Positions 3,269-59,350 of a stretch of 64,000 nucleotides of DNA are shown piece by piece; the stretch's first letter is position 1, and every line of letters starts with the position of its first letter. This stretch comes from Bryobacterales bacterium (GTDB lineage: Bacteria > Acidobacteriota > Terriglobia > Bryobacterales > UBA6623), in contig JAPOOG010000077.1 of NCBI GenBank assembly GCA_026713545.1, forward strand, positions 37,238-101,237, given 5' to 3'. Under the pieces are notes generated by a model that saw only the letters and a program-made list of their open reading frames with translations, had not been told where the DNA came from and searched no databases. The translations under genes were made by a program, and so were the position numbers.

Positions 3269-3537
3269 GCTTCGACGTTACAAACGTTACCGGGATTGGG
3301 AATCGGTGGCAACCTCCTCCGGGGCTTGAATCGCCCCGGCCTGCGCACGCCGCATCCACGACGCCTGTGAAAGCATTCGTCTCCAAGCAACGCGCTGTTG
3401 CCCTTCAAGCATTTGTCTTTGCGAAAACAGCGATCCCGGCGCCGTAAGACGCCTGATGCCAAGCCCCGAGCCTCGACCGGCGCTTGCCAGACAGTTTCCG
3501 AAACCGAACACACGTCCCTGGACGTAACAATCTCTAA

Positions 3538-3690
3538 CCTGCATTTCTCACCGCGCGGCGAGACGAAGTGCGTGAGAGGGCCGTCAGGACGAGGCGCGAG
3601 CCGGGCGGAGGAAAAAGGCGCGCGCAGGCGTACTTGACAAATCGCCTCTTTCCCCTACCTTGCCACATACACGGTGGTGAGAAATGTAGG
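3538..3690 (+). repeat. R1 inverted-repeat element, copy 1 (variant right half)
   Basis: Left end CCTGCATTTCTCACCGCGCGGCGAGACGAAGTGCGTGAGAGGGCCGTCAGGACGAGGCGCGAGCC. Right end GGTGGTGAGAAATGTAGG. The internal right arm differs from the other copies. Confidence 0.85.
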
Positions 3691-6743: not shown

Positions 6744-6761
6744 AACTTCCTCCTGATCAAG

Positions 6762-6937
6762 CCTGCATTTCTCACCACGTGGCGAGACGAAGTGCGTGAG
6801 AGGGCCGTCAGGACGAGACGCGCGCCGCTTGGCGCGCGCAGGTGTACTTGAAAGTACATCGAGCACGGCATGCAAGCGCAACGAAGTCATGGCGGTCGTA
6901 TCGCGTGCTTCGGCCGTCGGGTAGTGAGAAATGCAGG
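6762..6937 (+). repeat. R1 inverted-repeat element, copy 2 (type a, full length)
   Basis: CCTGCATTTCTCACCACGTGGCGAGACGAAGTGCGTGAGAGGGCCGTCAGGACG ... CGAAGTCATGGCGGTCGTATCGCGTGCTTCGGCCGTCGGGTAGTGAGAAATGCAGG. Lies between the convergent sulfatase and FGE genes. Confidence 0.9.
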
Positions 6938-10405: not shown

Positions 10406-12709
10406 ATGAAGTCGCGCTTCCTCTTCTTGACGCTGTTTACCGCGGCGGCATTGGCGACAGGTGTGTCCTGCGAAAGCGCTCTTCCCCGGGACGGATCGGC
10501 CTCGATCGCAACTCGGCTTCCCGGAGCCGAGCCCTTTCCCGAAGCTCTTGTCCGGAAACTCGACCAGGCCTGGAGCCGTCGCGGCCCCGCCTACAAACCC
10601 CGCACCCGGCATCTCGACGAAAACGGTGCGCCCAAGTTCACGAATCGTCTGTTGCTGGAAGGCAGCCCCTATCTCCTGCAGCACGCCCACAACCCTATGA
10701 ACTGGCATCCCTGGGGAGAGGAAGCCTTCGAGACCGCTCGCCGCCTCGGCCGCCCCGTCCTGCTGAGCGTCGGCTATTCGACCTGCCACTGGTGCCACGT
10801 CATGGAGGAAGAGTCTTTCGACGATGTCGAGATCGCCAAATATATCAATGAAAACTACGTCGCGATCAAAGTGGACCGCGAGGAGCGGCCCGACGTCGAT
10901 TCCATCTACATGAGCGCTGTCCAGGCAATGGGACGCCATGGCGGCTGGCCCATGACCGCCTGGCTCACACCCGAGCGCAAACCCTTCTATGCGGGTACGT
11001 ATTTCCCCGCCCGCGACGGCGATCGCGGCGCGTCAAAAGGCTTCCTCACCATCCTTGGCGATCTAAAAAGGATCTACGACGAGCAACCGGAGGATGTCGC
11101 CGCCCGCGCCGAGCAGATCGCCGGCCGTGTCGAAGCCATGCTCCAGCCCGAGACCGGCTCACAACTCCCCAATGCGGAAGTGCTGCACACCGTCGCCCGG
11201 TTTTACCGCCGACAATTCGACAATGTAAACGGCGGCGCCAAGGGCGCGCCCAAGTTCCCAAGCGGTCTGGCCATCCGCTTCCTCCTCCGTTATCACCGCC
11301 ATACCGGCGACCAGCAGGCCCTCGAGATGGTCGAGTCAACGCTCCAACATATGGCCGCCGGCGGCATCTACGATCACATTGGCGGAGGCTTCCACCGCTA
11401 CGCCACCGATGCCGAGTGGCGGATTCCGCACTTCGAGAAGATGCTCTATGACAACGCGCTGCTGGTTGTGAACTACCTGGAGGCTTATCAGGCCACCGGA
11501 CGCCAGGACTTCGCCCGGGTCGCCCGTGAAATCCTTCGCTACGTCGAGCGCGACATGACGTCGCCGAAAGGCGCCTTCTATTCCGCCACCGACGCAGACA
11601 GTCACAATCCCCAAGGCGAGAACGAGGAAGGCTGGTTCTTCACGTGGACCCCCGAGGAAATCGATTCTGTCGTGACCAACGAACAGGCCCTCCTCGTCAA
11701 ACAGCACTACAACGTCACGGGCACAGGCAACTTCGAAGGACGCAACATCCTCCATGCCGTACCGGGCTCGTCAACAATCTCCGCGCAACTCCAAACCGCC
11801 CGGGAAAAACTCTACACGGCGCGTCTCAAGCGGCCTCTCCCGCTCCGCGACGAAAAAATCCTCACTTCCTGGAACGGCTTGATGATCTCCGCTCAGGCCT
11901 TCGCCGCTCTCGTCCTTCGCGAAGAGGTATATGCCCGGAGAGCCGAGCGGGCCGCGGACTTTCTCCTCACGAACCTGCGCCGCGAGGGGCGCCTCCTGCG
12001 CCGTTACAAAGACGGCGAAGCACGTCACACCGCGTACCTCGACGACTACGCCTTCCTGATCGCCGGACTTCTCGATCTCTACGAAGCTACCGGCGGTCTC
12101 CGTTGGTTGCGCGAAGCCATCGCGCTCGACCGCGTTCTGGAAAAGAACTACGAGGATACGGAGAACGGCGGCTTCTTCATGACCAGCAACGATCACGAGC
12201 AACTCCTCGCGCGTGAGAAACCCAACTACGACGGTGCTGAACCTTCCGGCAATTCCGCCGCGGTGCTGAATCTCTTCCGGTTGCACGAATTCACAACCAT
12301 CGACAGCTACCGCCAACGGGCCGAGAAAGCGCTCCGGGCTTTCCAACCCATCCTGGCGTCGCGTCCCGCCGCGCTATCGGAGATGCTGCTAGCCCTCGAC
12401 TTCCACCTCGACACACCCAAACAAGTGGTCATCGTGACACCCGACGATCGCGGGCAGGCGGCTCACCTGCTCGAACAGCTCCGCGATGCCTTTCTCCCCA
12501 ACCGCATCCTCACCGTTGTCAGCGAAGGGGAAGAACTCGCGGAGCACACCGCCGTCATTCCACTGCTTGACCAGAAACGGGCCATCAAGGAACAACCCAC
12601 TGCCTACGTCTGCGAAAACCGAATCTGCGAACTCCCGACCGGTGATCCCGTCACCTTCGCCGAGCAACTCCGCAAAGTGAAGCTCCTGAACGTTCCAACG
12701 GCTCCGTAG
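10406..12709 (+). CDS. thioredoxin-domain protein, DUF255 / YyaL (SSP411-like) family
   Basis: [79 protein letters not shown] is the diagnostic N-terminal block. A long alpha/alpha-toroid-like C-terminal region follows. Confidence 0.9.
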
Positions 12710-12724
12710 CGGAAACCGCCCGCC

Positions 12725-13687
12725 ATGAAAACTTCTTCATTCCACCCCAGTGACTACAGCCGCGGCCACAAGCATAGCCTCGAGCTCGATGTCGGCCACA
12801 GCGGCATCCAACTCCCGATCCTGCTTGTTCGAGGATCTCATGCAGGAGCCACGCTCGTGGTTACGGCCGGCATCCACGGGGATGAATACGAAGGCGTCCG
12901 CGCCAGCTTCGACGTCGTCGAGACGCTCGATCCCGCCGCCATGCGCGGTGACCTCATTACCGTTCCGGTTGCGAATCCACCCGCCTTCTGGGCCGGAACC
13001 CGCCGCAGCCCCCTTGACAGCGTCAATCTTGCCCGGATTTTCCCCGGTGCTCCCGACCAGGGGCCGTCAGAAGCGATCGCGCACACGCTGGCCCGGCAAG
13101 TGATCGCGCAAGCCGACTTCTACTTGGACCTGCATAGCGCCGGGGTGGCCTTCCTGATGCCCACGATGGTTGGCTACAACGCCAACGACTCACGAGGCCG
13201 CGCCGCCGCCGAGTGCTTCGGAGCACCCGTCACGTGGAGTCATCCGACCATCGCCCCCGGCCGCACCATCTCGTTCGCGCACGAGCGCGGCATCCCGTGG
13301 CTCTACACCGAAGCCCGCGGCGCCGGACGCATCCACCCCGACGACCTCAACGTCTTTCATAGCGGCGTCACGAACCTCATGCGGCATCTGCGGATCCTCC
13401 CCGGAGAGCCAGCCTCGCCAAGCACCATCGAAACACGCTTGCACGGCGACGGCGACATCGAAGCCGGCCTCCTCTGCCAACGGGAAGGCTTCTTCATTCC
13501 CAGCGTCGAGTTGCTTCAAACCGTGACCGAAAGGCAGGAACTGGGACGCACGGTCAATCTCCACGGCGAAACCATTGAAACCTACCGGGCAACCTCGGAC
13601 GGTATCATCGCTCTTGTCCGCCAGTTTCCCGTCGTCAAAACGGGCGACCCCATGTTCGTGATCACCCAACAGCTGCCTGAGACTTGA
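12725..13687 (+). CDS. succinylglutamate desuccinylase/aspartoacylase (M14 AstE/AspA) family protein
   Basis: LVVTAGIHGDEYEGVRA zinc-binding H-x-x-E block, DLHSAG, and about 320 aa length. Confidence 0.8.
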   Translation: MKTSSFHPSDYSRGHKHSLELDVGHSGIQLPILLVRGSHAGATLVVTAGIHGDEYEGVRASFDVVETLDPAAMRGDLITVPVANPPAFWAGTRRSPLDSVNLARIFPGAPDQGPSEAIAHTLARQVIAQADFYLDLHSAGVAFLMPTMVGYNANDSRGRAAAECFGAPVTWSHPTIAPGRTISFAHERGIPWLYTEARGAGRIHPDDLNVFHSGVTNLMRHLRILPGEPASPSTIETRLHGDGDIEAGLLCQREGFFIPSVELLQTVTERQELGRTVNLHGETIETYRATSDGIIALVRQFPVVKTGDPMFVITQQLPET

Positions 13688-13863
13688 TTGTTCCCGGACA
13701 ACTGCCACTTCACCAGGCTCCGTCGCAAGCCCTGCCAAAAAACGCACAGTATATTCGAAATCGATGCGAAGAGAAATGCGCGCAAACGGCAACGCAACAC
13801 TTAACAAATCCACTCGTTGAAAGGTAAGCTGGTTTTGCTGGGTCTTCAAATCGGAGGTTTGTC

Positions 13864-16035
13864 ATGAGGAGAGTTACTCTTAATTTAGCGCACTGCTATG
13901 GAATCAAGCAGCTCAAGACAGTACTTGATTTTTCCAGTACTCAGGCTTACGCAATCTATGCACCCAATGGTGTAATGAAGTCATCACTAGCACAAACATT
14001 TCAGGATGCATTCAAAGGAGAGACTTCAATAGATAGAATTTTTTCTCAACGTGTGACTATGCGTTAAATTACAGACGAAAATGGTAAAATAATTGATGGC
14101 GAGCAGGTAATGGTAGTGTTGCCATACGATTCCGAATATGGCCCGACCGAAAAAACGTCTACATTGTTGGTGGACGCCGGACTTCGGAGAGAATATGAAC
14201 GTCTTCACATCAACATCGATGATGCAAAGGCAGCGTTGTTAAAGGCAATTCGTCAAACAGCAAAGACCAGAAAAAGAGACTTTGAAAATGAGATTACGTC
14301 AGCCTTTACTAGCGGAGATGATTTTGAGGTAGCTGTCACGAGAATCAAAGATGAATTAAAAAAGCAAAAGGACATGCCTTTTGCAAATGTTGAATACGAG
14401 ACCATTTTCAATGAAAAGGTACTTAAAGCTTTTGACAACAAGGACCTCAAGAATGCTGTGGAAGACTATATTCGGAGATACAATGAACTGCTCGCAGTGT
14501 CAACATTTTTCAAAAAAGGCACATTTGACTACTACAATGCTGGGCAAATTGCTAGAAGTCTTACAGCGAACGGTTTTTTTAAGGCGCATCATACGGTCAA
14601 TTTGAGAGCTACTGGCAAAATACTAGAAATCGCTACTGCAAAGGAACTGGAAAATATAATCACAGAAGAAAAAAAGGCAATTCTCAATGATGATGTACTT
14701 CGCATGAGGTTCGATGACGTAGCAAAGCAGCTGCAGCGAAATGCCGAACTCAGAAAGTTCTGCTACTACCTTCAAGACAATGAGCCACTTCTATCTAGAA
14801 TGGACAATCTGCCGAAGTTCAAGGAGGATGTTCTCAAATCGTATTTGAAAGCTCATTATAATCTTTATCTCGAATTGATGGGTGAATACGCACATGCTGC
14901 GAGGCGCAAAAAGCAGATCGAAGAAGAAGCCAGAAAGCAGCAAACTCAATGGGAGCAAGTCATCGCTATTTTCAACGATCGCTTCTTTGTTCCTTTCGAG
15001 CTAGAGACGAAAAACCGCATAGCAGTAATGCTTGGTGATGAGCCAATTGTTGAACTTGGCTTTACCTACATAGATGGCGAGGAACGAGTGGGCATAGACA
15101 AGCCCGAACTTTTAAAGGTTCTAAGCACTGGTGAAAAAAAGGCTCTTTACGTTCTCAATGTCATCTTTGAAGTTGAAAGACGGAGCAAAGACGGTGTAGA
15201 AACACTCGTCATCATAGATGATATCGCAGACTCCTTCGACTATCAAAACAAGTACGCAATCATTCAGTATCTTGACGACATTAGTAAAGATGGTCTCTTT
15301 AAGCTCATAATCATGACTCACAATTTTGATTTCTTTCGCACGATAGAGGGAAGGAAAATTGCTGGTTATCGAAATTGTCTAATTGCTTTGAAGGACAAAG
15401 ATGAAATTACTCTTGTTCAGGCGGCAGGTATTAGAAATATCTTTGTGAACGATTGGAAAGAGAACTTTTTTGCTGACTCACGAAAGAAGATTGCGTCAAT
15501 CCCTTTTCTGCGAAACCTGGTCGAAATGACCACCGGTGAAGGCGACGCGAACTATAAACAACTGACGTCCATTCTCCATTGCATGCCCGATTCTAACAAA
15601 ATCACAGTCCGTCATCTGGACTGCATTTTTAATGTGATATGCAACACTGCCGGATCTTCTGATAATCCCTCAACACCGGTGCATGACTTAATTCAGAGTG
15701 AGGCGATTGCTTGCCTATCTAACCAAACGGCATTCAATCTTGAGAACAAAATTGTTCTTGCTATTGCAATACGTCGTGCTGCTGAGCAGTTCATGATTGA
15801 AAAGATTCGAAATGATGCGTTCGTATCAAAGATAGAATCCAATCAAACACAAGTTCTGATTCGAAAGTTTAAAAACCTATTCCCCAAAGAGGCTGAAACG
15901 ATCAAAGTATTGGATAGAGTCGCGCTCATGACTCCAGAAAACATCCACGTTAACTCTTTCATGTACGAGCCTATTGTGGACATGTCCGACGCGCATCTTA
16001 AAAAGCTTTATCAGGACGTCTTGGGACTGGTGTGA
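13864..16035 (+). pseudogene. AAA_13-type (PrrC/RloC-like) ABC/SMC ATPase on an AT-rich island, interrupted by one in-frame TAA at 14065-14067
   Basis: Track ORFs 13864..14067 and 14110..16035 are in the same frame, with a single TAA between them (...QRVTMR*ITDENGKIIDGEQVMVVLPYD...). N-terminus IYAPNGVMKSSLAQTF occupies the Walker A position. A long charged helical insert follows. ABC signature LSTGEKKALYVLNVIF, Walker B TLVIIDDIADSFD, H-loop LIIMTHNFDFF, then about 250 aa of C-terminal domain. Sampled lines are about 30-43% GC versus above 60% in the flanks. Confidence 0.7.
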
Positions 16036-16812
16036 GCCTTTACATTGCGGAAATTCTTCCAGTATCTGACCCGTACCGGGAAACCCTTCGTCTTCGGCAT
16101 GAGGCAGTCCATCGGAATGATGTAGAGCCTCACTTTTCTGTAAGTCCGTAACGCCTCGTAGCCGTTCGTGCTCGTCTCCACCGAGCAGCCCGGTTTCTGC
16201 AACATCCTCCGCGACGCTTCCCGGTTGACGCTGCGACCACTCAACACCGCCTCGGATTGACAACGTATTGGTGAACCGCTGTTGGTTTTTTCTTCCGACG
16301 CGCACTGTGATCGACCTCGGTCCATCGATAAACGTGTACTCCGTAGGCCTTGCCGGTATGGCAGCTATCACTGCAGCGACTGCAGACATTACTCCGATCG
16401 CTTTCCAAGCCGTCTTCGCGGTGATCACGGCGTCTCTGCCATCGGACCAATAACTCGTGCAGGACGAACTGTAGTCAATGTAAAAACAATCCGTCACGTA
16501 ACCGGGTTCCTCTGATACCGCAAGATAACCGGCAATCACCGCCCCTGAAAGCAATCCATAAGCTACCGCTCCTCTTCGCATGGGGACAGACAAGTCTTCG
16601 TTGATCTCGGGATCCAAGCTGGCGAACGTTGCCACCAATGACCGATGCTTCCGGTCATACACTTCAATGCCGTCATCGGTGACGTGGATCGCGGCTTTCC
16701 GCCATTTTCCGTCAAGCGTCTTGTATCTCACCTTTCCTTTATCGAACCATTCGGCTTGGACTGCGCACGCACTCAACACAACAAGAACGAAGCCTCTGCA
16801 TAGCCTGGTCAT
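15877..16812 (-). CDS. hypothetical secreted/membrane protein; the 3' third of the ORF is doubtful
   Basis: MTRLCRGFVLVVLSACAVQA signal peptide, then two hydrophobic segments (AVAYGLLSGAVIAGYLAV, AIGVMSAVAAVIAAI). The ORF has no stop until 15877. It therefore runs over the receiver remnant in another frame and 160 nt into the antisense of the AT-rich ATPase gene, so the native 3' end has probably been lost. Confidence 0.35.
   Translation of the reverse strand: MTRLCRGFVLVVLSACAVQAEWFDKGKVRYKTLDGKWRKAAIHVTDDGIEVYDRKHRSLVATFASLDPEINEDLSVPMRRGAVAYGLLSGAVIAGYLAVSEEPGYVTDCFYIDYSSSCTSYWSDGRDAVITAKTAWKAIGVMSAVAAVIAAIPARPTEYTFIDGPRSITVRVGRKNQQRFTNTLSIRGGVEWSQRQPGSVAEDVAETGLLGGDEHERLRGVTDLQKSEALHHSDGLPHAEDEGFPGTGQILEEFPQCKGSHQSQDVLIKLFKMRVGHVHNRLVHERVNVDVFWSHERDSIQYFDRFSLFGE
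16040..16256 (-). pseudogene. degenerate response-regulator receiver-domain remnant, truncated at the island edge
   Basis: Track ORF 16011..16325(-) reads ...AVLSGRSVNREASRRMLQKPGCSVETSTNGYEALRTYRKVRLYIIPMDCLMPKTKGFPVRVRYWKNF. This parallels the hybrid-kinase receiver consensus VLVVEDNxVNRxVAxxMLxKxGxxVxxAxNGxEALxxxxxxxYDLILMDCxMPxMDGFExxRxIR. The acidic pocket is lost and the reading frame breaks off at about 16040, where the AT-rich island begins. Confidence 0.4.
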
Positions 16813-17196
16813 TCCCTCCGCCCTCCTTTCTTTGCCGGTCCGGTTACCCATTCGCGGAACACAGGATGCCGGCCCGAGGAGTCCAAGCGCAGGTGACCTT
16901 GCAGTCTCCCGAACCGCTATTGCGTCGTTTCGAAGACGGCATCCGTCCGTACCGAGCCTTCGGGACCGCCAACCGCGCGACTACGGGCAAGCGCCACATG
17001 CCGCTTGGACGGAGCGTGTGTTTAGAGCGTTTCTATGGTTCGTGTGGTTGCGAACAAACCCATCCTGAAGCGGGATTCATGACCCGCAGGCAATGTCTCC
17101 AGCGGAAAACGAGGCTCCGCCTCAGATCGACAAGCAGGACAACGGATCGCCGCGTCAACTTGACTCGTATGTGAACCTTGGCGGCGAAGAAAAAAA

Positions 17197-17982
17197 CTAG
17201 ATCGCTGTCCAGCCCGCATCCACCGGAATGTTGGCGCCGGTGATGTAGCGCGACGCGTCCGACGCCAGGAACACGGCGGGTCCTTTGATATCGTCCTCGT
17301 CGGCCATTCGTCCCAGCAGAGTGCGCGCACTGTACTGCCGGACGAACGTGTCGCTGTGATCGGGTGTTTGCAGACCGCCCGGAGAGAGCGCGTTGACCCT
17401 TACGTTGTAGGTCCCCAGGAAACTCGCCAGGTAGCGGGTCATCTGGATCATCCCGCCCTTCGCGAAGTGATAGTCGATCGGGTTCGACATGGAGGTGCCC
17501 TCGTAGATGGACCAGTCCGGCCCCACCATGCCGTAGATGGAGGCAATGTTCACGATCGATCCGGACCGCCGCTCGCGCATCGGCTCGGACAGGATTTGGC
17601 ATGCCAGCAACAGGCCTGACGAATTGACCCGCATGGCTTGCCGCCAACCCTCGGCGGTGACTTCGAGCAGGCCTCCTCCGGCCCGAGCCACCGAATTGTT
17701 GAAGAGCACGTCAAGCTGTCCATGACGTTCGATCAGCCGGTCCCGCAAGCGCCGAATCGAGTCCTCCGACGCTTGATCATATTGATCTCCTTCAGCACGC
17801 AGCCCTTCTTGTCGAAGCTCCTCGGCGTACGCCCGGCAGGCCTCTTCATTCCGGGAGGCGGTCACGACCGTCGCCCCCGCCTCGGCCAGGGCGCGCACGA
17901 TGTGTTTACCGTAGAGCCCGGCGCCCCCCGTCACCAGAGCCACCTTCCCATCCAGGCGAAACAGCTTCTCCGTCGGAATCAT
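17197..17982 (-). CDS. SDR-family oxidoreductase
   Basis: GKVALVTGGAGLYGKHIVRALAEAGATVV (TGxxxGxG), NNSV, catalytic Y-x-x-x-K region (DYHFAKGG), PGGL. Confidence 0.85.
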   Translation of the reverse strand: MIPTEKLFRLDGKVALVTGGAGLYGKHIVRALAEAGATVVTASRNEEACRAYAEELRQEGLRAEGDQYDQASEDSIRRLRDRLIERHGQLDVLFNNSVARAGGGLLEVTAEGWRQAMRVNSSGLLLACQILSEPMRERRSGSIVNIASIYGMVGPDWSIYEGTSMSNPIDYHFAKGGMIQMTRYLASFLGTYNVRVNALSPGGLQTPDHSDTFVRQYSARTLLGRMADEDDIKGPAVFLASDASRYITGANIPVDAGWTAI

Positions 17983-22754: not shown

Positions 22755-22938
22755 CCGATCGGCGTCGGACCCGCTATCTATCTCAGCCGAGATGTGAAGT
22801 TGACGCTGAAGAGCCCGCAATGCGAACAGGCAGCCTGCCTGTCGGAGATTCCTCCAACGGATCGACACGACTGCGCGGGGGCTCCTGAATCGCGAAAAAG
22901 AGCCGGCAATAGCAGGTAATGCTGGACTGGGAACATAG

Positions 22939-23116
22939 CCTGCTTTTCTCACCACGCGACGAGGCGAAGTGCGTGAGAGGGCCGTCAGGACGGGGCGCGA
23001 GCCGCTTGGCGCGCGCAGGCGTACTTGAACAGTACGTTGAGTACGGCAAGCAAGCGCAACGAAGTCCTGGCGGTCGTATCGCGTGCTTCGCCTCGTCGCG
23101 TGGTGAGAAATGCAGG
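22939..23116 (+). repeat. R1 element, copy 3 (type a; 31-nt perfect terminal inverted repeat)
   Basis: CCTGCTTTTCTCACCACGCGACGAGGCGAAGTGCGTGAGAGGGCCGTCAGGACG ... CTTCGCCTCGTCGCGTGGTGAGAAATGCAGG. The right end directly abuts the TCA (= TGA stop) of the DUF1501 gene at 23117. Confidence 0.9.
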
Positions 23117-24577
23117 TCAGCCCACGAACAGATCCGTAACCGCCTTGCCCTTGACCAACTCGCGAGGCTGGTCGAGATGATTGTGGATTTCCATATTGGG
23201 ATCGATGCCGAGGGCGTAATAAACGGTGGCCAGCAGGTCGTTCGGATGGACCGGCTTTTCCCTGGGTGAGGATGCCGTCTCGTCGGACTCGCCGTAAAGC
23301 CGTCCGCCGGGAATGCCCGCGCCGGCAACCATCGCCGTGTAGCAATAGGGCCAGTGGTCGCGGCCGTCCGGGGAATTCGAGTTGCCCGACGTACTGACGC
23401 CGAGGCGCGGCGAGCGGCCGAATTCCCCAACAGCCACCACGAGGGTGTCATCGAGCAGGCCGCGCTCGGTCATGTCGCCGAGCAGCGCGCTCAGGGTCTG
23501 GTCGAGCACGGGGCAATGCAGGTTCTTCAGCGGCCCGAAGTTCGACGCATGCGTATCCCAAGCGGTCGTTTCCGGGTTGCCGTTGGCGACCGACGGCCAG
23601 TTGACCTGCACGAATCGCGTGCCGGCTTCGATGAGCCTCCGCGCCATCAAAGCGCCCTGGCCGAAGGTCGTCCGTCCGTAGCGCTCTCGCATCTTGTCCG
23701 GCTCCTTCGACAGGTCGAACGCGTCGCGCGCTTTGCCGGAGAGCACCAGATCGAAGGCCTTCTCGTAGTAGGTGTCGAGCGCCGTGTTCTCGACGGCCTT
23801 CTCGAGATCGGGCATGGACTCGTTGATGCCCTTCAGCAGCTCGAAGCGGCTCTGCAGGCGCTCGGGCGGTGTTTCTTTCCGTAGCGCGAGGTCGTCGAGC
23901 TTGATCGGCTTGTTCGGGTCCTGGTAGAGGCGATAGGGGTCGTACGCCTTGCCGATGAAACCGGCGGCGCCGCCTTTGCCGATGACGCTCGATTCCTGCA
24001 GCGGACGCGGCATCTCGACGAACGGCAGCACGGGCTCGGTCGGCGGTATCATCTTGCTGATCCAGGAGCCGGCCGTGGGGAAGTCGATCGGCGACGGCGG
24101 CTCGAGTTGGCCCGACGGCGACACCTTGTCGGGCGGGTAGCCGGTCAGCATCTGATAGATCGCGGCGGTATGGTTGAACAGGCCCTTCGGCGTGTAGCTC
24201 ATCGAACGGATGAGCGTGCACTTGTCGATGGATTCGGCGAGCTTCGGCATCGTCTCGCTGAGCCAGATGCCGGGGACCTTCGATTGAATCGGTTTGAACT
24301 CGCCTCGAATGTTCGACGGCGCGTCGGGTTTGGGGTCCCAAATATCGATATGGCTCGGACCGCCTTGGAGGAACAGCATGATGACCGACTTGGCCCGGCC
24401 GAACCCGCCTGCGCCCTCGAAGCGCGGCGGGACGGCAGCCGCCTTCGCGCGGTCCTGCAACTCGAAGACCTGCGACAAAGTCATACCGAGCAGGCCGAGC
24501 GAACCCACCTGCATGAAGTCGCGGCGACTTGCGCCGTCACAATTGCGTACCGACCAACGTCCCGGAATGTTCAGCAT
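23117..24577 (-). CDS. DUF1501 domain protein (sulfatase-like fold), Tat-exported
   Basis: MLNIPGRWSVRNCDGASRRDFMQVGSLGLLGMTL Tat signal. Also SVIMLFLQGGPSHIDIWDPKP, GRDHW and the C-terminal HPNDLLATVYYALGID block characteristic of DUF1501. Start at ATG 24577, preceded by GGGGAGG. Confidence 0.9.
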   Translation of the reverse strand: MLNIPGRWSVRNCDGASRRDFMQVGSLGLLGMTLSQVFELQDRAKAAAVPPRFEGAGGFGRAKSVIMLFLQGGPSHIDIWDPKPDAPSNIRGEFKPIQSKVPGIWLSETMPKLAESIDKCTLIRSMSYTPKGLFNHTAAIYQMLTGYPPDKVSPSGQLEPPSPIDFPTAGSWISKMIPPTEPVLPFVEMPRPLQESSVIGKGGAAGFIGKAYDPYRLYQDPNKPIKLDDLALRKETPPERLQSRFELLKGINESMPDLEKAVENTALDTYYEKAFDLVLSGKARDAFDLSKEPDKMRERYGRTTFGQGALMARRLIEAGTRFVQVNWPSVANGNPETTAWDTHASNFGPLKNLHCPVLDQTLSALLGDMTERGLLDDTLVVAVGEFGRSPRLGVSTSGNSNSPDGRDHWPYCYTAMVAGAGIPGGRLYGESDETASSPREKPVHPNDLLATVYYALGIDPNMEIHNHLDQPRELVKGKAVTDLFVG

Positions 24578-27846: not shown

Positions 27847-27885
27847 TTCAGCCGCCTGCGGTGCGCTCGAACCCCTCTGTCCCAG

Positions 27886-28062
27886 CCTGCATTTCTCACC
27901 ACGAAGCGAGGTGAAGTGCGTGAGCGGGCCGTCAGGACGAGACGCGCTCAGCTTGGTGCGCGCAGGTGTACTTGACCAGTAGATCGAGCACGGCAAGCGA
28001 GCGCAACGAAGTCATGGCGGTCTTATCGCGTGCTTCGGTCGTCAGGTGGTGAGACATGCAGG
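27886..28062 (+). repeat. R1 element, copy 4 (type a)
   Basis: CCTGCATTTCTCACCACGAAGCGAGGTGAAGTGCGTGAGCGGGCCGTCAGGACG ... CTTCGGTCGTCAGGTGGTGAGACATGCAGG. Overlaps the last 13 codons and the stop of the PAP2 gene. Confidence 0.9.
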
Positions 28063-35325: not shown

Positions 35326-35453
35326 TGTAACGCATGGGCCGGCTCCCGGCGGCGGCCGACGCTACCGTGTGCTCAGAGAGGGACCGTGGTTGCGCAAGAA
35401 CGCCCGCATCGATGACCGGCAGGGAGAACCTGCCCTTTGCGGCCGCTCCTGGG

Positions 35454-35612
35454 CCTGCATTTCTCACCACGAGGCGAGGCGAAGTGCGTGAGAGGGCCGT
35501 CAGGACGAGCCGCTAGCCACTTGGCCCCAGCAACATGGCCTTTACCGGTTCTCCACACGAATCACGGCCTTTTTCTCGCGTGCTTCGGCTGTCAGGCGGT
35601 GAGCAACGAAGG
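35454..35612 (+). repeat. R1 element, copy 5 (type b, degenerate right terminus)
   Basis: CCTGCATTTCTCACCACGAGGCGAGGCGAAGTGCGTGAGAGGGCCGTCAGGACGAGCCGC ... CACACGAATCACGGCCTTTTTCTCGCGTGCTTCGGCTGTCAGGCGGTGAGCAACGAAGG. Confidence 0.8.
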
Positions 35613-44297: not shown

Positions 44298-44407
44298 CGG
44301 AAGTCCTCGAAACTCACAGGCAGGCCGAGAACATCCTGCCCACCGCCGAGCGGGAAGCCCCTGACGGGGGCTCCGTGGATACCTCCGCTCGTCGTCTTCT
44401 CGGCTGG

Positions 44408-44575
44408 CCTGCATGTCTCACCACGAGGCGAGTTGAAGTGCGTGAGAGGGCCGTCAGGACGAGGCGCGTGCCGCTTGGCGTCGGCAACACGGCTTTTGAG
44501 GTTTCTCACGAATCACGAGACACGAATCACGCCCTTTTTCGCGTGCTTCGGCCGTCGGGTGGTGAGATATGCAGG
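44408..44575 (+). repeat. R1 element, copy 6 (type b, heptad-module core)
   Basis: CCTGCATGTCTCACCACGAGGCGAGTTGAAGTGCGTGAGAGGGCCGTCAGGACG ... TTCTCACGAATCACGAGACACGAATCACGCCC ... GTGCTTCGGCCGTCGGGTGGTGAGATATGCAGG. Confidence 0.9.
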
Positions 44576-45900: not shown

Positions 45901-46947
45901 ATGCTGAAGCGCAGGGTCGGCGGCGAACTCTGGTGCGTCTCGCAGCCCGATCACGCCGCCGCTGCCGGCTACCTGGCCGCTCACTGGGGCAACGGCGAAT
46001 TCACCCGCCCCGGCTGGTACGCTCCCTGTCCCGACCCCGAAAGGCTGCGAGCCGAAACCGTCCTCGCCGTCTCCGAGCACGACAACGGTTGGTGGGAATG
46101 GGAGGCCGACCCCCGGATCGATCCCGCCGACGGCCTTCCCTTGGACCTGACGAGCATCGAGCAGTCCGACGGCCTCCAACGCTGGCGCCTGGGCGTACCC
46201 CGCTTCCGGGAGAGCCATCCTTACGTCGCGCTGCTTATCAGCCTGCATGCCTACTGGCTGCACGCTCCCCGCGTCCAGGCCGAGGATGCGCCCGCGTTCC
46301 TCCACCCGCTCTTCGGAAGCCCTGCTGATTGGCCCTCACCGCAAGGCCGGGAACTCGAAGAAGCCAGGCGGTTCGTTGCCGAACAACACGTCCTGCAGGA
46401 GCTGCTCATCGATCGTATCAGCAGCGATCCCGAATGGGCCGCCGCCATCGAGCCGTGGAGCCTGCGTCCCCACACCCGCCTCCTGCAAGCCTGCGACGCC
46501 CTCTCGCTCCACCTCTGTTTTGGCGGAGACAAGGAGCGAATCATGCACGGCATTCCGCGCGCGAGCTGGAACGATCGAGTCTCGCTCAGCGTCCGGCTGG
46601 CAGGCGAATCCCGAGTAGCCATCGACCCCTACCCCTTCGATCAGGACCCGCTCGCGGTCACCCTCCGAGCCCGCATCCTCAACCTGTATTTCTCACCACG
46701 TGGCGAGGCGAAGTGCGTGAGAGGGCCGTCAGGACGAGGCGCGAGCCGCTTGGCGCGCACAGGCGTACTTGACAGTACGTCGAGCACGGCAAGCAAGCGC
46801 AACGAAGTCCTGGCGGTCGTATCGCCTGCTTCGACCGTCGGGTGGGGAGATATGCAGGTTAACCCGGAGATTCGCGTCCCCGACGACTTCCATGCCTGGT
46901 GGCACGCGCTCCCCCGCCGGGAAATTCGGTTCATATTCACTCGTTGA
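45901..46947 (+). CDS. DUF3891-like protein whose ORF runs through R1 copy 7
   Basis: N-terminal QPDHAAAAGYLAAHWGN...AVSEHDNGWWEWE pattern, recalled as DUF3891. Codons 262-321 (LYFSPRGEAKCVRGPSGRGASRLARTGVLDST...GDMQVN) are encoded by the repeat. 28 further codons follow before TGA at 46945-46947. Confidence 0.55.
   Translation: MLKRRVGGELWCVSQPDHAAAAGYLAAHWGNGEFTRPGWYAPCPDPERLRAETVLAVSEHDNGWWEWEADPRIDPADGLPLDLTSIEQSDGLQRWRLGVPRFRESHPYVALLISLHAYWLHAPRVQAEDAPAFLHPLFGSPADWPSPQGRELEEARRFVAEQHVLQELLIDRISSDPEWAAAIEPWSLRPHTRLLQACDALSLHLCFGGDKERIMHGIPRASWNDRVSLSVRLAGESRVAIDPYPFDQDPLAVTLRARILNLYFSPRGEAKCVRGPSGRGASRLARTGVLDSTSSTASKRNEVLAVVSPASTVGWGDMQVNPEIRVPDDFHAWWHALPRREIRFIFTR
46683..46858 (+). 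repeat. R1 element, copy 7 (type a), located inside the DUF3891-like ORF
   Basis: CCTGTATTTCTCACCACGTGGCGAGGCGAAGTGCGTGAGAGGGCCGTCAGGACG ... CTTCGACCGTCGGGTGGGGAGATATGCAGG. Flanked by AAC(C) at 46681 and 46861, exactly 180 nt apart. Confidence 0.9.
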
Positions 46948-46982: not shown

Positions 46983-47151
46983 CCTGCATTCCTCGCCACA
47001 TGGCGAGGCGAAGTGCGTGAGAGGGCCGTCAGGACGAGGTGCGAGCCGCTTGGCGCGCACAACATGGCCTTTAAAGTTTTTCACGAGTCACGAAACACGA
47101 ATCACGGCCTTTTCTCGCGTGCTTCGGCCGTCAGATGGTGAGAAATGCAGG
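46983..47151 (+). repeat. R1 element, copy 8 (type b)
   Basis: CCTGCATTCCTCGCCACATGGCGAGGCGAAGTGCGTGAGAGGGCCGTCAGGACG ... TTTTTCACGAGTCACGAAACACGAATCACGGCC ... GTGCTTCGGCCGTCAGATGGTGAGAAATGCAGG. The right end abuts the TCA (= TGA stop) of pta at 47152. Confidence 0.9.
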
Positions 47152-48114
47152 TCAGGCCTGCAGGGCCGTGATCGCTGCGATGTAGTAGATGTCGTCGGCG
47201 GTGCAGCCGCGAGAGAGGTCGTTGGCGGGCTTCGTCAGCCCCTGGAGAAACGGCCCCAGTGATTTGGCTCCACCGAGCCGTTCGGCGAGCTTGTAGCCGA
47301 TATTGGCGGAATTGAGATCGGGGAAGATCAGCACGTTGGCCCGTCCGGCGACGGGCGAGCCGGGCGCTTTGCGCGCGGCGACACTTTCGACCAGGGCGGC
47401 GTCGGCCTGCAGCTCGCCGTCGATGGTGAGATCAGGGGCCCGCTCGCGGATGATGCGGCAAGCCTCCGCAACCTTCTCGGCCAGCGGATGCCGCGCGCTG
47501 CCCTTGGTCGAGAACGACAGCAACGCCAGGCGGGGCTCGTCGACGAGGAACCGGCGGCTGTTCTCGGCGGTGGCCATGGCGATGTCCGCCAGTTGGGCGG
47601 CGTTGGGCTCGGGCACTACGGCGGCGTCGGCGAAGACCAGCACGCCGCGGCTGCCGTGATGCTGCTCGGGGTGGACCAGAAGCATGAAGCTCGACACGAG
47701 GCGGATGTCCGGCTTCAGCCCCAGGCACCGGATCGCGGCCCGCAGGGTCTCGGCGGTGGTGTTGTTCGCCCCGCCCACCATGCCGTCCACGTCGCCGTTG
47801 GCCAGCATGAGCGATGCGAAATAGAGCGGCCTTCCTGCCGCCTCGTGCGCCTCGGCGCGCCTGACCCCCTTCGCCTTCCTGAGATCGTGGTAAAGCCCGG
47901 CGTAGGCCTCGCGTTTGGGGCTGCGCTCCGAATCCACCCATTCGACCCCGCGCGGCGGGTCCCCGGGGCGGCCCACGACCACGGGCTTGACCACGGCGTC
48001 TCGCGCCAGCCGCTCGGCAGCACGGATCACTCGCTCGTCGTTCCCTTCCGGGAAGACGATGCGCTTGTTGGCAAGCCGTGCTCGAGCGGCCAGATCGTTG
48101 AGGAAGGCTCCCAT
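47152..48114 (-). CDS. pta: phosphate acetyltransferase (PTA_PTB domain only)
   Basis: [36 protein letters not shown]...[45 protein letters not shown]. Start moved to ATG 48114. Confidence 0.85.
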
Positions 48115-51437: not shown

Positions 51438-51639
51438 GGTCTGCTTTTCTCGCCAAGCGGCGAGGCGAAGTACGTGAGAGGGCCGTCAGGACGAGGCGCG
51501 AGCGCCCGTGCCGGCGACACGGCTTTTCCCGTTCACCCCCGTCCGACATTCCTTCTGGAGCGAACAAAGCCCCCGCCAATGGTTTTCACGAATCACGAGT
51601 CACGAATCACGGCTTTTACGCTTTTCACGAATCACGGCC
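51438..51639 (+). repeat. composite repeat: R1 left half (copy 9) + module E + heptad module B
   Basis: GGTCTGCTTTTCTCGCCAAGCGGCGAGGCGAAGTACGTGAGAGGGCCGTCAGGACGAGGCGCGAGC, then CTTCTGGAGCGAACAAAGCCCCCGCCAATGG (also found at 53712), then TTTTCACGAATCACGAGTCACGAATCACGGCTTTTACGCTTTTCACGAATCACGGCC. Confidence 0.85.
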
Positions 51640-58861: not shown

Positions 58862-58999
58862 GCCTAGCATGAGGTCAGCGAGGCGAAAATCCTGCCGCGT
58901 GGCAAGGCAAAGTGCATGAGAGGGCCGGCAGGACGAGGCGCAAGCCGCCCGCGCCGGCGACACCGCCTGTAAGCCTTTTTACGAATCACGGCCTTTACC
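58862..58999 (+). repeat. degenerate R1-related segment (copy 10) ending in a heptad unit
   Basis: ...CTAGCATGAGGTCAGCGAGGCGAAAATCCTGCCGCGTGGCAAGGCAAAGTGCATGAGAGGGCCGGCAGGACGAGGCGCAAGCCGCC ... CTTTTTACGAATCACGGCC. Confidence 0.65.
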
Positions 59000-59070
59000 G
59001 CCGTTCGGTTCGTCGCGTGTGCGAATGGTTCACAAGACAAAACCCACCGCCCGGAACGCCGTACCCGCCG

Positions 59071-59200
59071 ACAAGTCACTGCTTCCCTGCCCACCATTTC
59101 CCACTATTTCCCGGCATTTCCCGGTAAATAAATTGCCCTTGAGCCAGTGTCCGAGCACCGTCAGCCGTTCTCGGTCTGCTTCACGACGAGCGCCGTTCGC
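59071..59200 (+). repeat. module C copy 3 (10-bp phased array plus AT-box plus conserved tail)
   Basis: AAGTCACTGCTTCCCTGC CCACCATTTC CCACTATTTC CCGGCATTTC CCGGTAAATAAATTGCCCTTGAGCCAGTG ... CGTCAGCCGTTCTCGGTCTGCTTCACGACGAGCGCCGTTCGCC. Confidence 0.85.
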
Positions 59201-59350
59201 CTGTATATCTCACCAAGTGGCAAGGCGAAGTCTATCCGGGTCACGAGACACGAACCACGAAATGCTGCCTTCCCCCATTGATCACGGCAAGCCAGCGCAA
59301 CGAAGTCATGGCGGTCTGATCGTGTGCTGCGGCTATCGCGACATGATTCC
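59200..59350 (+). repeat. R1 element, copy 11 (degenerate)
   Basis: CCTGTATATCTCACCAAGTGGCAAGGCGAAGT ... CACGGCAAGCCAGCGCAACGAAGTCATGGCGGTCTGATCGTGTGCTGCGG ... The right terminus is eroded. Confidence 0.65.

Follow-up and report, generated by a model that had tools for sequence, protein, structure and literature searches.

The window analysed here, a 64,000-nt stretch of a Bryobacterales bacterium (contig JAPOOG010000077.1, positions 37,238 to 101,237 of the forward strand), carries an AT-rich island from ~13737 to ~16069 whose only gene (13864–16035, + strand, 723 codons) is interrupted by an in-frame stop. The reconstructed protein matches the candidate phage defence family PDC-S46 from end to end, and comparison with related genomes revealed three further copies of the island, each damaged in its own way, together with sites at which the island is absent. 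The explanation that we hold to be very probable is a horizontally acquired PDC-S46 gene islet that entered once and is now decaying, with a mechanism that can be proposed by analogy.

Assignment of the Island Gene to PDC-S46

The reconstructed protein matched the PADLOC profile for PDC-S46 (PDLC05023) over residues 1–720, equivalent to positions 1–716 of the 719 in the profile, with a score of 849.7 bits (E = 5.5e-256), and its C-terminal domain alone matched the same profile at E = 1.3e-75. Judged by this profile match, the island gene is a full-length member of PDC-S46 in the form of a pseudogene. The prophage protein family phrog_38705 (function unknown) was also matched full length, both by the 641-aa open reading frame (ORF) that follows the stop and by a homologue. 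More than 6000 homologues of ~721 aa were found, nearly all of 720–735 aa and highly conserved, some of them annotated as "phage infection protein" or "AAA family ATPase."

PDC-S46 is one of 145 untested candidates for phage defence, the PDC systems, which were identified through "guilt by embedding" within known defence systems (Payne et al. 2024, bioRxiv 10.1101/2024.01.29.577857). Two others of the set, S11 and S12, have meanwhile been put to the test by other groups. The anti-phage role of PDC-S46 is a prediction from Payne et al.; the name PDC-S46 was absent from the literature searched and from the text supplementary files of that study. A first-pass annotation, made from the sequence alone, had described the gene as a horizontally moving candidate of the anti-phage type, which is borne out by the full-length PDC-S46 match and by the presence of homologues both on plasmids and within a prophage protein family. 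The same annotation had named a best-matching family with a housekeeping role as evidence to the contrary, and the best family found is the PDC-S46 candidate defence family.

Its finer labels fared less well. The description "PrrC/RloC-like" is not supported, as no PADLOC match to PrrC or RloC was obtained with the whole protein at E ≤ 1, or to PrrC with the C-terminal domain at E ≤ 10, and the gene has neither a CxxC zinc hook nor linkage to the hsd genes of type I restriction-modification. The label "AAA_13-type" is correct for the ATPase C-lobe of some close homologues, 4 of 10 tested passing the Pfam cut-off of 36 bits (36.6–50.4 bits) through residues ~317–510, aligned with positions ~393–582 of the 713 in the profile; the window protein itself gave no AAA_13 match at E ≤ 1, a separate scan found none among 23 family members at E ≤ 0.1, and the rest of the profile was never matched. 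Pfam returned only sub-threshold matches for the window protein, to SMC_N (27.7 bits against a 40-bit cut-off) and AAA_23, and the weak matches of its ATPase C-lobe were to SMC_N, PDC-S06, AriA, and mad8. An NCBIfam search with the window protein gave nothing useful, and a sequence search of the PDB with the family profile gave chance-level matches only.

Composition and Boundaries of the Island

The GC content in 200-nt windows across ~13.7–16.1 kb ranged from 0.365 to 0.475 (mean 0.415), against a mean of 0.622 (standard deviation 0.041) outside the island, where 2 of 611 windows fell below 0.48. The island mean is thus 5 standard deviations under the outside mean, and the trough is unique within the window. 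The same shift is seen in codon usage, with a GC content at third codon positions of 0.42 in the island gene versus 0.75–0.78 in neighbouring genes. Change points in the cumulative GC curve were located at 13736 and 16069, which match the junctions obtained by comparison with relatives (left, ~13731–13737; right, ~16050–16075). The windowed GC and codon-usage calculations suggested in the first-pass annotation therefore uphold the AT-rich island, but the edges that it had placed at ~13861 and ~16036 are actually at ~13737 and ~16069, so that the island starts ~130 nt upstream of 13864 and ends ~35 nt past 16035. Its estimate of more than 60% GC in the flanks agrees with the outside mean of 62% but not with the right flank at 16.04–16.85 kb, which is of intermediate composition (53–56%).

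The island consists of a single reading frame bordered by two short non-coding segments. The 5′ leader (13737–13863, + strand) includes a Shine-Dalgarno-like GGAGG at 13853–13857, 6 nt upstream of the ATG, and the 3′ tail occupies 16036–16069 (+ strand). Promoter and terminator scans of the island performed no better than shuffles. No direct or inverted repeats above chance matches flank the island, no target-site duplication or terminal repeat was found at it, and no integrase, transposase, or hsd gene occurs within ~±10 kb, where a colinear relative was also checked. Across the 64-kb window there are no transfer RNA (tRNA) genes and, at gathering thresholds, no Rfam matches. The recombinase gene, tRNA target, and flanking repeats of an integrase- or transposase-borne genomic island are consequently all missing. 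With one frame, foreign GC content, and relatives without the island, the original picture of a single-gene AT-rich foreign islet, free of integrase, transposase, flanking repeats, and nearby hsd genes, is retained.

Island-bearing and Island-free Relatives

The AstE-like protein encoded beside the island matches Bryobacterales (Acidobacteriota) metagenome-assembled genomes, and five close species-level relatives (L003–L007) are colinear with the window at 91–95% identity. In L003, a 2.36-Mb ENA contig, the island is full length, has 41% GC and a sense codon 68, and carries a 1-nt deletion at window position 15359 that leads to a 505-aa product. L004, a complete chromosome, keeps window 13739–14080 and then joins 16034, corresponding to a deletion of 14081–16033. 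L005 keeps ~13739–14511 and then jumps to 16095, its copy showing an early stop, P-loop substitutions, an insertion of ~300 nt, and truncation. L006 and L007 have no island and thus provide the empty site for which the first-pass annotation had proposed a search. A copy of native GC content at the same place in a relative would have spoken for a resident gene; the copy found in a relative has 41% GC.

The left junction and the 130-nt leader are common to the window, L003, L004, and L005, and the 3′ tail is common to the window, L003, and L004. In the two island-free genomes homology to the window ends at ~13724–13730 and resumes at 16076 (L006) or 16259 (L007), and the position of the leader is occupied instead by sequence of a receiver relic. 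Because the island-bearing genomes have the same junctions, the comparison points to a single acquisition of the island. The four copies, in turn, appear from their alignment to have been broken independently, by a nonsense codon, a frameshift, and two large deletions.

Inactivation of the Window Copy

The in-frame TAA at codon 68 (14065–14067, + strand) splits the frame into ORFs of 67 and 641 aa, the 641-codon ORF spanning 14110–16035. At codon 68, 21 full-length homologues have K, Q, N, or S, while the codon reads AAT in L003 and CAT in L004 and L005; since it is a sense codon in the homologues, the TAA is read as a nonsense mutation. An identical TAA is present in the ENA contig k141_131432 (L002), which is identical to window 13899–17829 (3931 nt). 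As the TAA parts the P-loop (codons 33–41) from every other motif, this copy is interpreted as a pseudogene, and a recent one. The first-pass annotation had simply read through the stop, which is not supported: the codon is taken to be an inactivating nonsense codon, and the lesions differ among all four lineages that bear the island.

Between the window and L003, the island gene has 47 non-synonymous and 111 synonymous differences, with a synonymous divergence (dS) of 0.29 and a ratio of non-synonymous to synonymous divergence (dN/dS) of 0.097. This ratio indicates that purifying selection was strong during most of the period after the window and L003 split, and hence that the lesions are recent.

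Two observations concern the 5′ part of the gene. In the short-read ENA assembly ERZ27241795, evidently from the same population, contigs identical to the window end at 13827 and restart at 13899, and this break at the left edge of the island (13828–13898) may reflect strain heterogeneity or a drop in coverage. In P0048, a homologue from an unrelated lineage (L057, ~2930–2945), a 1-nt insertion at approximately codon 61 lies 7 codons from the stop of the window copy and also severs the P-loop segment; the proximity of the two lesions may be a coincidence or may mark a preferred region of inactivation.

The Landing Site

The island adjoins the relic of a receiver (REC) domain at 16077–16229 (− strand), which matches Pfam Response_reg at E = 1.5e-5 over profile positions 9–59 of 111. 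Over 50 aa it shares 42% identity (E = 1e-12) with the REC domain at the C terminus of a hybrid histidine kinase in L008, a more distant Bryobacterales genome. The kinase, a 988-aa hybrid sensor histidine kinase at L008 10900–13866 (− strand), is syntenic with window ~13700–17100, and the relic is read as the remainder left after loss of such a kinase. In L006 a decayed receiver spans the site and reads "...DIILMD..MPETNGF...PVIVL...EAGRDDFFWKPVDLKAS" with stops and frameshifts, and both L006 and L007 keep the 3′ REC pieces that the window has lost, such as "...DDFFWKPVDLKAS" and, in L007, "...LLMKPVDLKVS". Since ~190 nt of L006 (11001–11190) are missing from the island-bearing genomes, the island is concluded to have replaced the 3′ half of the relic. 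The earlier suggestion that the gene landed inside a decayed receiver gene is thereby supported, by the homology of the relic to the REC domain of the L008 kinase and by its continuation in L006 and L007.

The genes adjacent to the island encode a DsbH-like thioredoxin, an AstE/AspA-like enzyme, a hypothetical protein, an SDR, and a class IV aminotransferase. In three further relatives (L010–L012) the AstE and SDR genes lie ~50–800 nt apart, and in L009 other genes lie between them, so the AstE–SDR interval is a variable spot, a hotspot of gene turnover among Bryobacterales. The conserved hypothetical gene (15877–16851, − strand), taken from the ORF list, has a signal-peptide-like N terminus and no Pfam match. 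Its normal stop has been lost and its frame crosses the REC relic and 159 nt of the island, giving a length of 324 aa in the window versus 254 aa in L006 and 232 aa in L007, and dN/dS in its conserved part (16260–16812) is 0.10–0.12. In L004 a second copy of the hypothetical-gene segment is present (11352–12410 and 12862–13623, equivalent to window 16034–17091), 77–79% identical to the first; it is a tandem paralogue beside that copy and is absent from the window.

The ATPase Head

An AlphaFold model built from an intact homologue 74% identical to the window protein (predicted local distance difference test score, pLDDT, of 84) comprises an ABC head that is broken by ~270 residues of helices and is followed by a helical C-terminal domain. 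The P-loop, A-P-N-G-V-M-K-S-S at codons 33–41 (13960–13986, + strand), sits in a strand-loop-helix arrangement in the model (residues 28–51). Residues Ala33, Asn35, Gly36, Met38, and Lys39 are invariant in alignments of 23 and 97 sequences, and Ser40 and Ser41 are invariant in the former and at least 90% conserved in the latter. In this segment, YAIYAPNGVMKSS, a Met takes the position of the second Gly in GxxxxGK[ST], that is, the Gly before the Lys, a residue that is almost universal in P-loop NTPases; the deviant Walker A is family-wide. The motifs of the C-lobe (15121–15333, + strand), which are invariant columns in both alignments, consist of the signature LSTGE at codons 420–424 (family form LSTGE[KR]KA), the Walker B and D-loop LVIIDDIADSFD at codons 448–459 (family form hhhhDDIADSFDYQNKY), and the H-loop MTHNFDF at codons 484–490 (family form MTHNFDFFRT).

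In a Foldseek search the model gave 24 significant matches (probability 1.0, E = 1.5e-5 to 7.6e-4) to SMC, Rad50, RecN, and RecF heads, to retron-associated ATPases, and to Septu PtuA. The P-loop, signature, Walker B, D-loop, H-loop, ABC head fold, and insert between the lobes that characterize ABC ATPases of the SMC/Rad50 class are all present, with the caveat that the Walker A is A-x-x-G-x-M-K-S and not G-x-x-x-x-G-K-S/T. The modelled PDC-S46 protein is accordingly placed in this class, its head carrying a helical insert.

In the linker that joins the ATPase to the C-terminal domain, the window and L003 read RKIAGY at codons 497–502 (~15352–15369) versus the nearly invariant RFV-xY of the family, with one additional residue. 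This site is the exact spot of the 1-nt deletion in L003, and RKIAGY may be an old compensated frameshift.

The C-terminal Domain

The last ~219 aa of the protein (15376–16032, + strand) form a separate domain, defined by the AlphaFold model and by conservation, that is presumed to be an effector. Modelled from the window's own sequence (pLDDT 85.8, predicted template modelling score 0.83), it is composed of a β-hairpin followed by ~10 helices. Across members of 36–53% identity, the invariant or near-invariant residues, chiefly polar, are F-x-R550-N551, H572, K629, R637-x3-E641, Q661-T662, T690-P691-E692, H695-x-N697, E702-P703, and D706, and the conserved stretch MTPENIHxNSFMYEPIxDM stands out.

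When 28 diverse C-terminal domains were scanned against Pfam and PADLOC, no shared family besides PDC-S46 emerged, a PDB sequence search with the C-terminal profile gave chance-level matches only, and Foldseek against the PDB and viral models gave nothing significant. The top PDB matches by Foldseek, and the sole ones of appreciable probability, were 2q00 (probability 0.92) and 1wwp (probability 0.75), both at E = 0.8–1.0, which are HEPN domains (Anantharaman et al. 2013). The conserved Rx4–6H motif of HEPN domains is absent from the 28 domains, none of which matched a Pfam HEPN family. Two near-invariant patterns, R637-x3-E641-x53-H695 and R550-x3-E554-x17-H572, resemble the Arg-x3-Glu-x31–52-His catalytic triad of PrrC and RloC with spacings outside the published range, and they are treated as a lead, not as a demonstration of homology to these proteins. 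A phmmer scan of 1.84 billion representatives placed the domain in ~1100 clusters at 50% identity, and among the best 150 of these no alternative architecture was observed; in matches of ~680–760 aa within that set the domain is always C-terminal, and shorter entries could be fragments.

Distribution and Gene Contexts of the Family

Homologues of PDC-S46 are found on plasmids of Rhizobium, Sphingomonas, Ralstonia, Leptospira, Paenibacillus, and others, and one lies within a phage record. The gene is always a lone gene, and its neighbours differ at every homologous locus examined, with no obligatory partner. On plasmids it occurs beside a helix-turn-helix (HTH)-PIN pair, beside MazEF, and near replication genes. 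Elsewhere it is located between a tricorn-type protease and an IS1595 transposase, within a cluster of Bil-like ubiquitin-system genes and a HEPN protein, between AddAB-like and SbcCD-like genes, and beside an HTH-M78 peptidase gene. The GC content of the gene is under that of its flanks in 10 of 10 loci measured, the window included, by a wide margin in nine and by a narrow one on the low-GC Leptospira plasmid (gene 0.309, flanks 0.332). The nearest homologues are 70–73% identical in DNA, and this similarity ends at the ends of the ORF.

An Intergenic Repeat in the Window

A palindromic intergenic repeat of ~180 nt with inverted ends (TTTCTCACCACGCGACGAGGCGAAG ... CTTCGCCTCGTCGCGTGGTGAGAAA) is present at no fewer than 10 sites in the window, at 3535–3637, 6760–6937, 22926–23125, 27884–28062, 35453–35525, 44407–44480, 46683–46865, 46983–47158, 51441–51503, and 58905–59334. 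Its presence differs among the relatives, it has no Rfam match, and none of its copies is beside the island. It looks like a miniature inverted-repeat transposable element or an element of the repetitive extragenic palindromic type.

Alternative Explanations

The gene might still be functional, with the TAA an error or a minority allele, or with the 67- and 641-aa pieces cooperating or the second arising by reinitiation. The copy has a single lesion, its dN/dS against L003 is low, an ATG lies 42 nt past the stop, and the assembly break at 13828–13898 hints at heterogeneity of the 5′ end. We nevertheless regard a working gene as improbable, as the TAA recurs in the ENA contig over its 3931 identical nucleotides and divides the P-loop from the other ATPase motifs at a point where no homologue is naturally split, the shorter database entries examined being a frameshifted copy or mis-called starts, and broken copies occur in three other island-bearing species too. 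A role outside defence, as a housekeeping or accessory DNA-repair or chromosome-handling ATPase of the SMC/RecN/Rad50 type that is AT-rich by chance, would account for the best Pfam and fold matches being SMC_N, Rad50, RecN, and RecF heads and for the homologue that sits between AddAB-like and SbcCD-like genes. It is harder to reconcile with a distribution that is patchy even in sister species and extends to plasmids and a prophage protein family, with foreign composition in nearly all hosts measured, with repeated inactivation without loss of the host lineage, and with a full-length match to a family drawn from genes embedded in known defence systems (Payne et al.), and we give this role a small chance.

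Slimmer still, by a little, is the chance that the island is what survives of a larger mobile element (a prophage, integrative element, or transposon) after deletion of the genes for its mobility. The family is represented in a PHROG and sometimes adjoins transposases, and the AstE–SDR interval differs among Bryobacterales, but four genomes have the same tight junctions with the gene alone between them, no terminal repeat, target duplication, tRNA, or integrase fragment accompanies it, and the nearest homologues have no common DNA past the ORF. An assembly chimera that placed an AT-rich segment within a Bryobacterales contig could be suspected from the short-read assembly of the same population, which breaks at the left edge (13828–13898); the right junction is contiguous in that assembly (L002), however, and both junctions recur in the separate assemblies L003 and L004 and the left one in L005, so that a chimera is rejected as next to impossible.

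The horizontally acquired, decaying PDC-S46 islet is itself confronted with several observations that weigh against it. In a tree of the flanks, (window,(L003,(L004,(L005,L007)))), rooted on L006 and with bootstrap values of 100, 88, and 87%, the island-free L007 is nested among the island bearers, and one extra event is needed. L007 cannot be taken for a simple deletion derivative, as it retains ancestral REC sequence that is missing from the island bearers and its segment is divergent. The adjacent segment of L007 is 81–82% identical to all others, below the 90–91% of the outgroup, and an exchange, by homologous recombination, for a divergent allele without the island would fit this identity, the one observation that speaks for it. 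The dS of the island gene (0.29) is, moreover, approximately twice that of the core flanks (0.11–0.155). The high value could be due to more rapid divergence of an AT-rich gene within a genome rich in GC, to weaker codon constraint, or to an older or recombined segment. For the adjacent hypothetical gene (16260–16812), dS against L003 is 0.26, also approximately twice that of the core flanks. The frameshift in L003 could be an assembly error. As to function, the assignment of PDC-S46 to phage defence is a prediction from its candidate status (Payne et al.), the Met in the P-loop might mean unusual ATP hydrolysis or none, and the effector idea is weak given a C-terminal domain that has no significant match in sequence or fold.

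Proposed History and Function of the Island

In the history that we propose for the PDC-S46 islet, an ancestor of this Bryobacterales species group would have gained the segment ~13737–16069, consisting of the 130-nt leader, the gene, and the 35-nt tail. A short foreign fragment would have entered dispensable DNA by recombination, either illegitimate or assisted by homology on one side, with no element-encoded recombinase, and the island would have taken the place of ~190 bp of an already decaying receiver relic between the AstE-like and SDR genes. By analogy with PrrC, RloC, OLD, and other single-chain defences that join an ABC ATPase to an effector, an infection cue would be perceived by the ATPase together with its insert, and the C-terminal domain, possibly an RNase with the Arg-x3-Glu...His constellation, would then be released as a toxic effector and cause abortive infection. 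The lineage would now be discarding the gene, all four copies being broken differently.

That a single defence-type gene is gained at a variable spot and lost later is what is expected of pan-immune turnover, and it is of little import for this genome in particular. As a natural history the locus is clean, with exact junctions, two island-free relatives, four modes of inactivation, and a dN/dS of 0.10, and it documents strong constraint until recently and then rapid loss in an uncultured soil Acidobacteriota lineage. PDC-S46, being large and conserved, with an unusual P-loop and a C-terminal domain without a recognizable relative, is a reasonable target for experiment. It is conceivable, although we think it rather unlikely, that PDC-S46 is a distinct single-chain immune protein and a third branch of "ABC ATPase plus RNase" systems, with a non-canonical P-loop and a new helical effector that has a PrrC-like site. 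If so, the series available at this one locus, from an intact homologue through nonsense, frameshift, and deletion alleles to island-free sites, would record the speed at which a costly gene is discarded.

Comparison with Known Systems

The closest counterpart of the island gene is PDC-S46 itself, with which it shares the end-to-end match, length, motifs, and lone-gene organization, and from which the window copy differs by its nonsense codon. PrrC and RloC, anticodon nucleases whose C-terminal RNase is of the HEPN type, are similar in that one polypeptide unites an ABC ATPase at the N terminus with a helical domain at the C terminus, and RloC also in having a helical insert within the ATPase. 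The Walker B "DD" and the LSxGE[KR]-type signature of PDC-S46 are features that we take to recall PrrC and RloC, and its Arg-x3-Glu...His patterns recall their triad, with spacings (x53 and x17) outside x31–52. Both differ from PDC-S46 in that its P-loop is deviant and their profiles do not match it. RloC has a CxxC zinc hook inside its coiled-coil insert, whereas no CxxC is found anywhere in the window protein, whose cysteines are at positions 11, 300, 505, 573, 587, 593, and 617, and, unlike PrrC, the island gene is not in a type I restriction-modification (hsd) locus.

In the case of AAA_13 (PF13166), the C-lobe of close homologues, with its signature, Walker B, and H-loop, aligns with the profile, whereas no match ever reaches the profile's N-terminal lobe or its C-terminal third. 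Septu PtuA, the retron PtuA-like ATPases, SMC, Rad50, and RecN provide the best head folds (5xei, 9e8z, 9bi4, 8eea, and 4ad8; probability 1.0), but at 10–14% identity and TM scores of 0.2–0.4, and these proteins have separate partner nucleases or form long coiled-coil dimers without the C-terminal domain of PDC-S46. The PADLOC candidate PDC-S06 aligns over residues 418–575 with positions 416–572 of the 693 in its profile (E = 1.4e-10), an alignment that is confined to the ATPase C-lobe plus the first part of the C-terminal domain and that suggests PDC-S06 to be a sister family of similar length.

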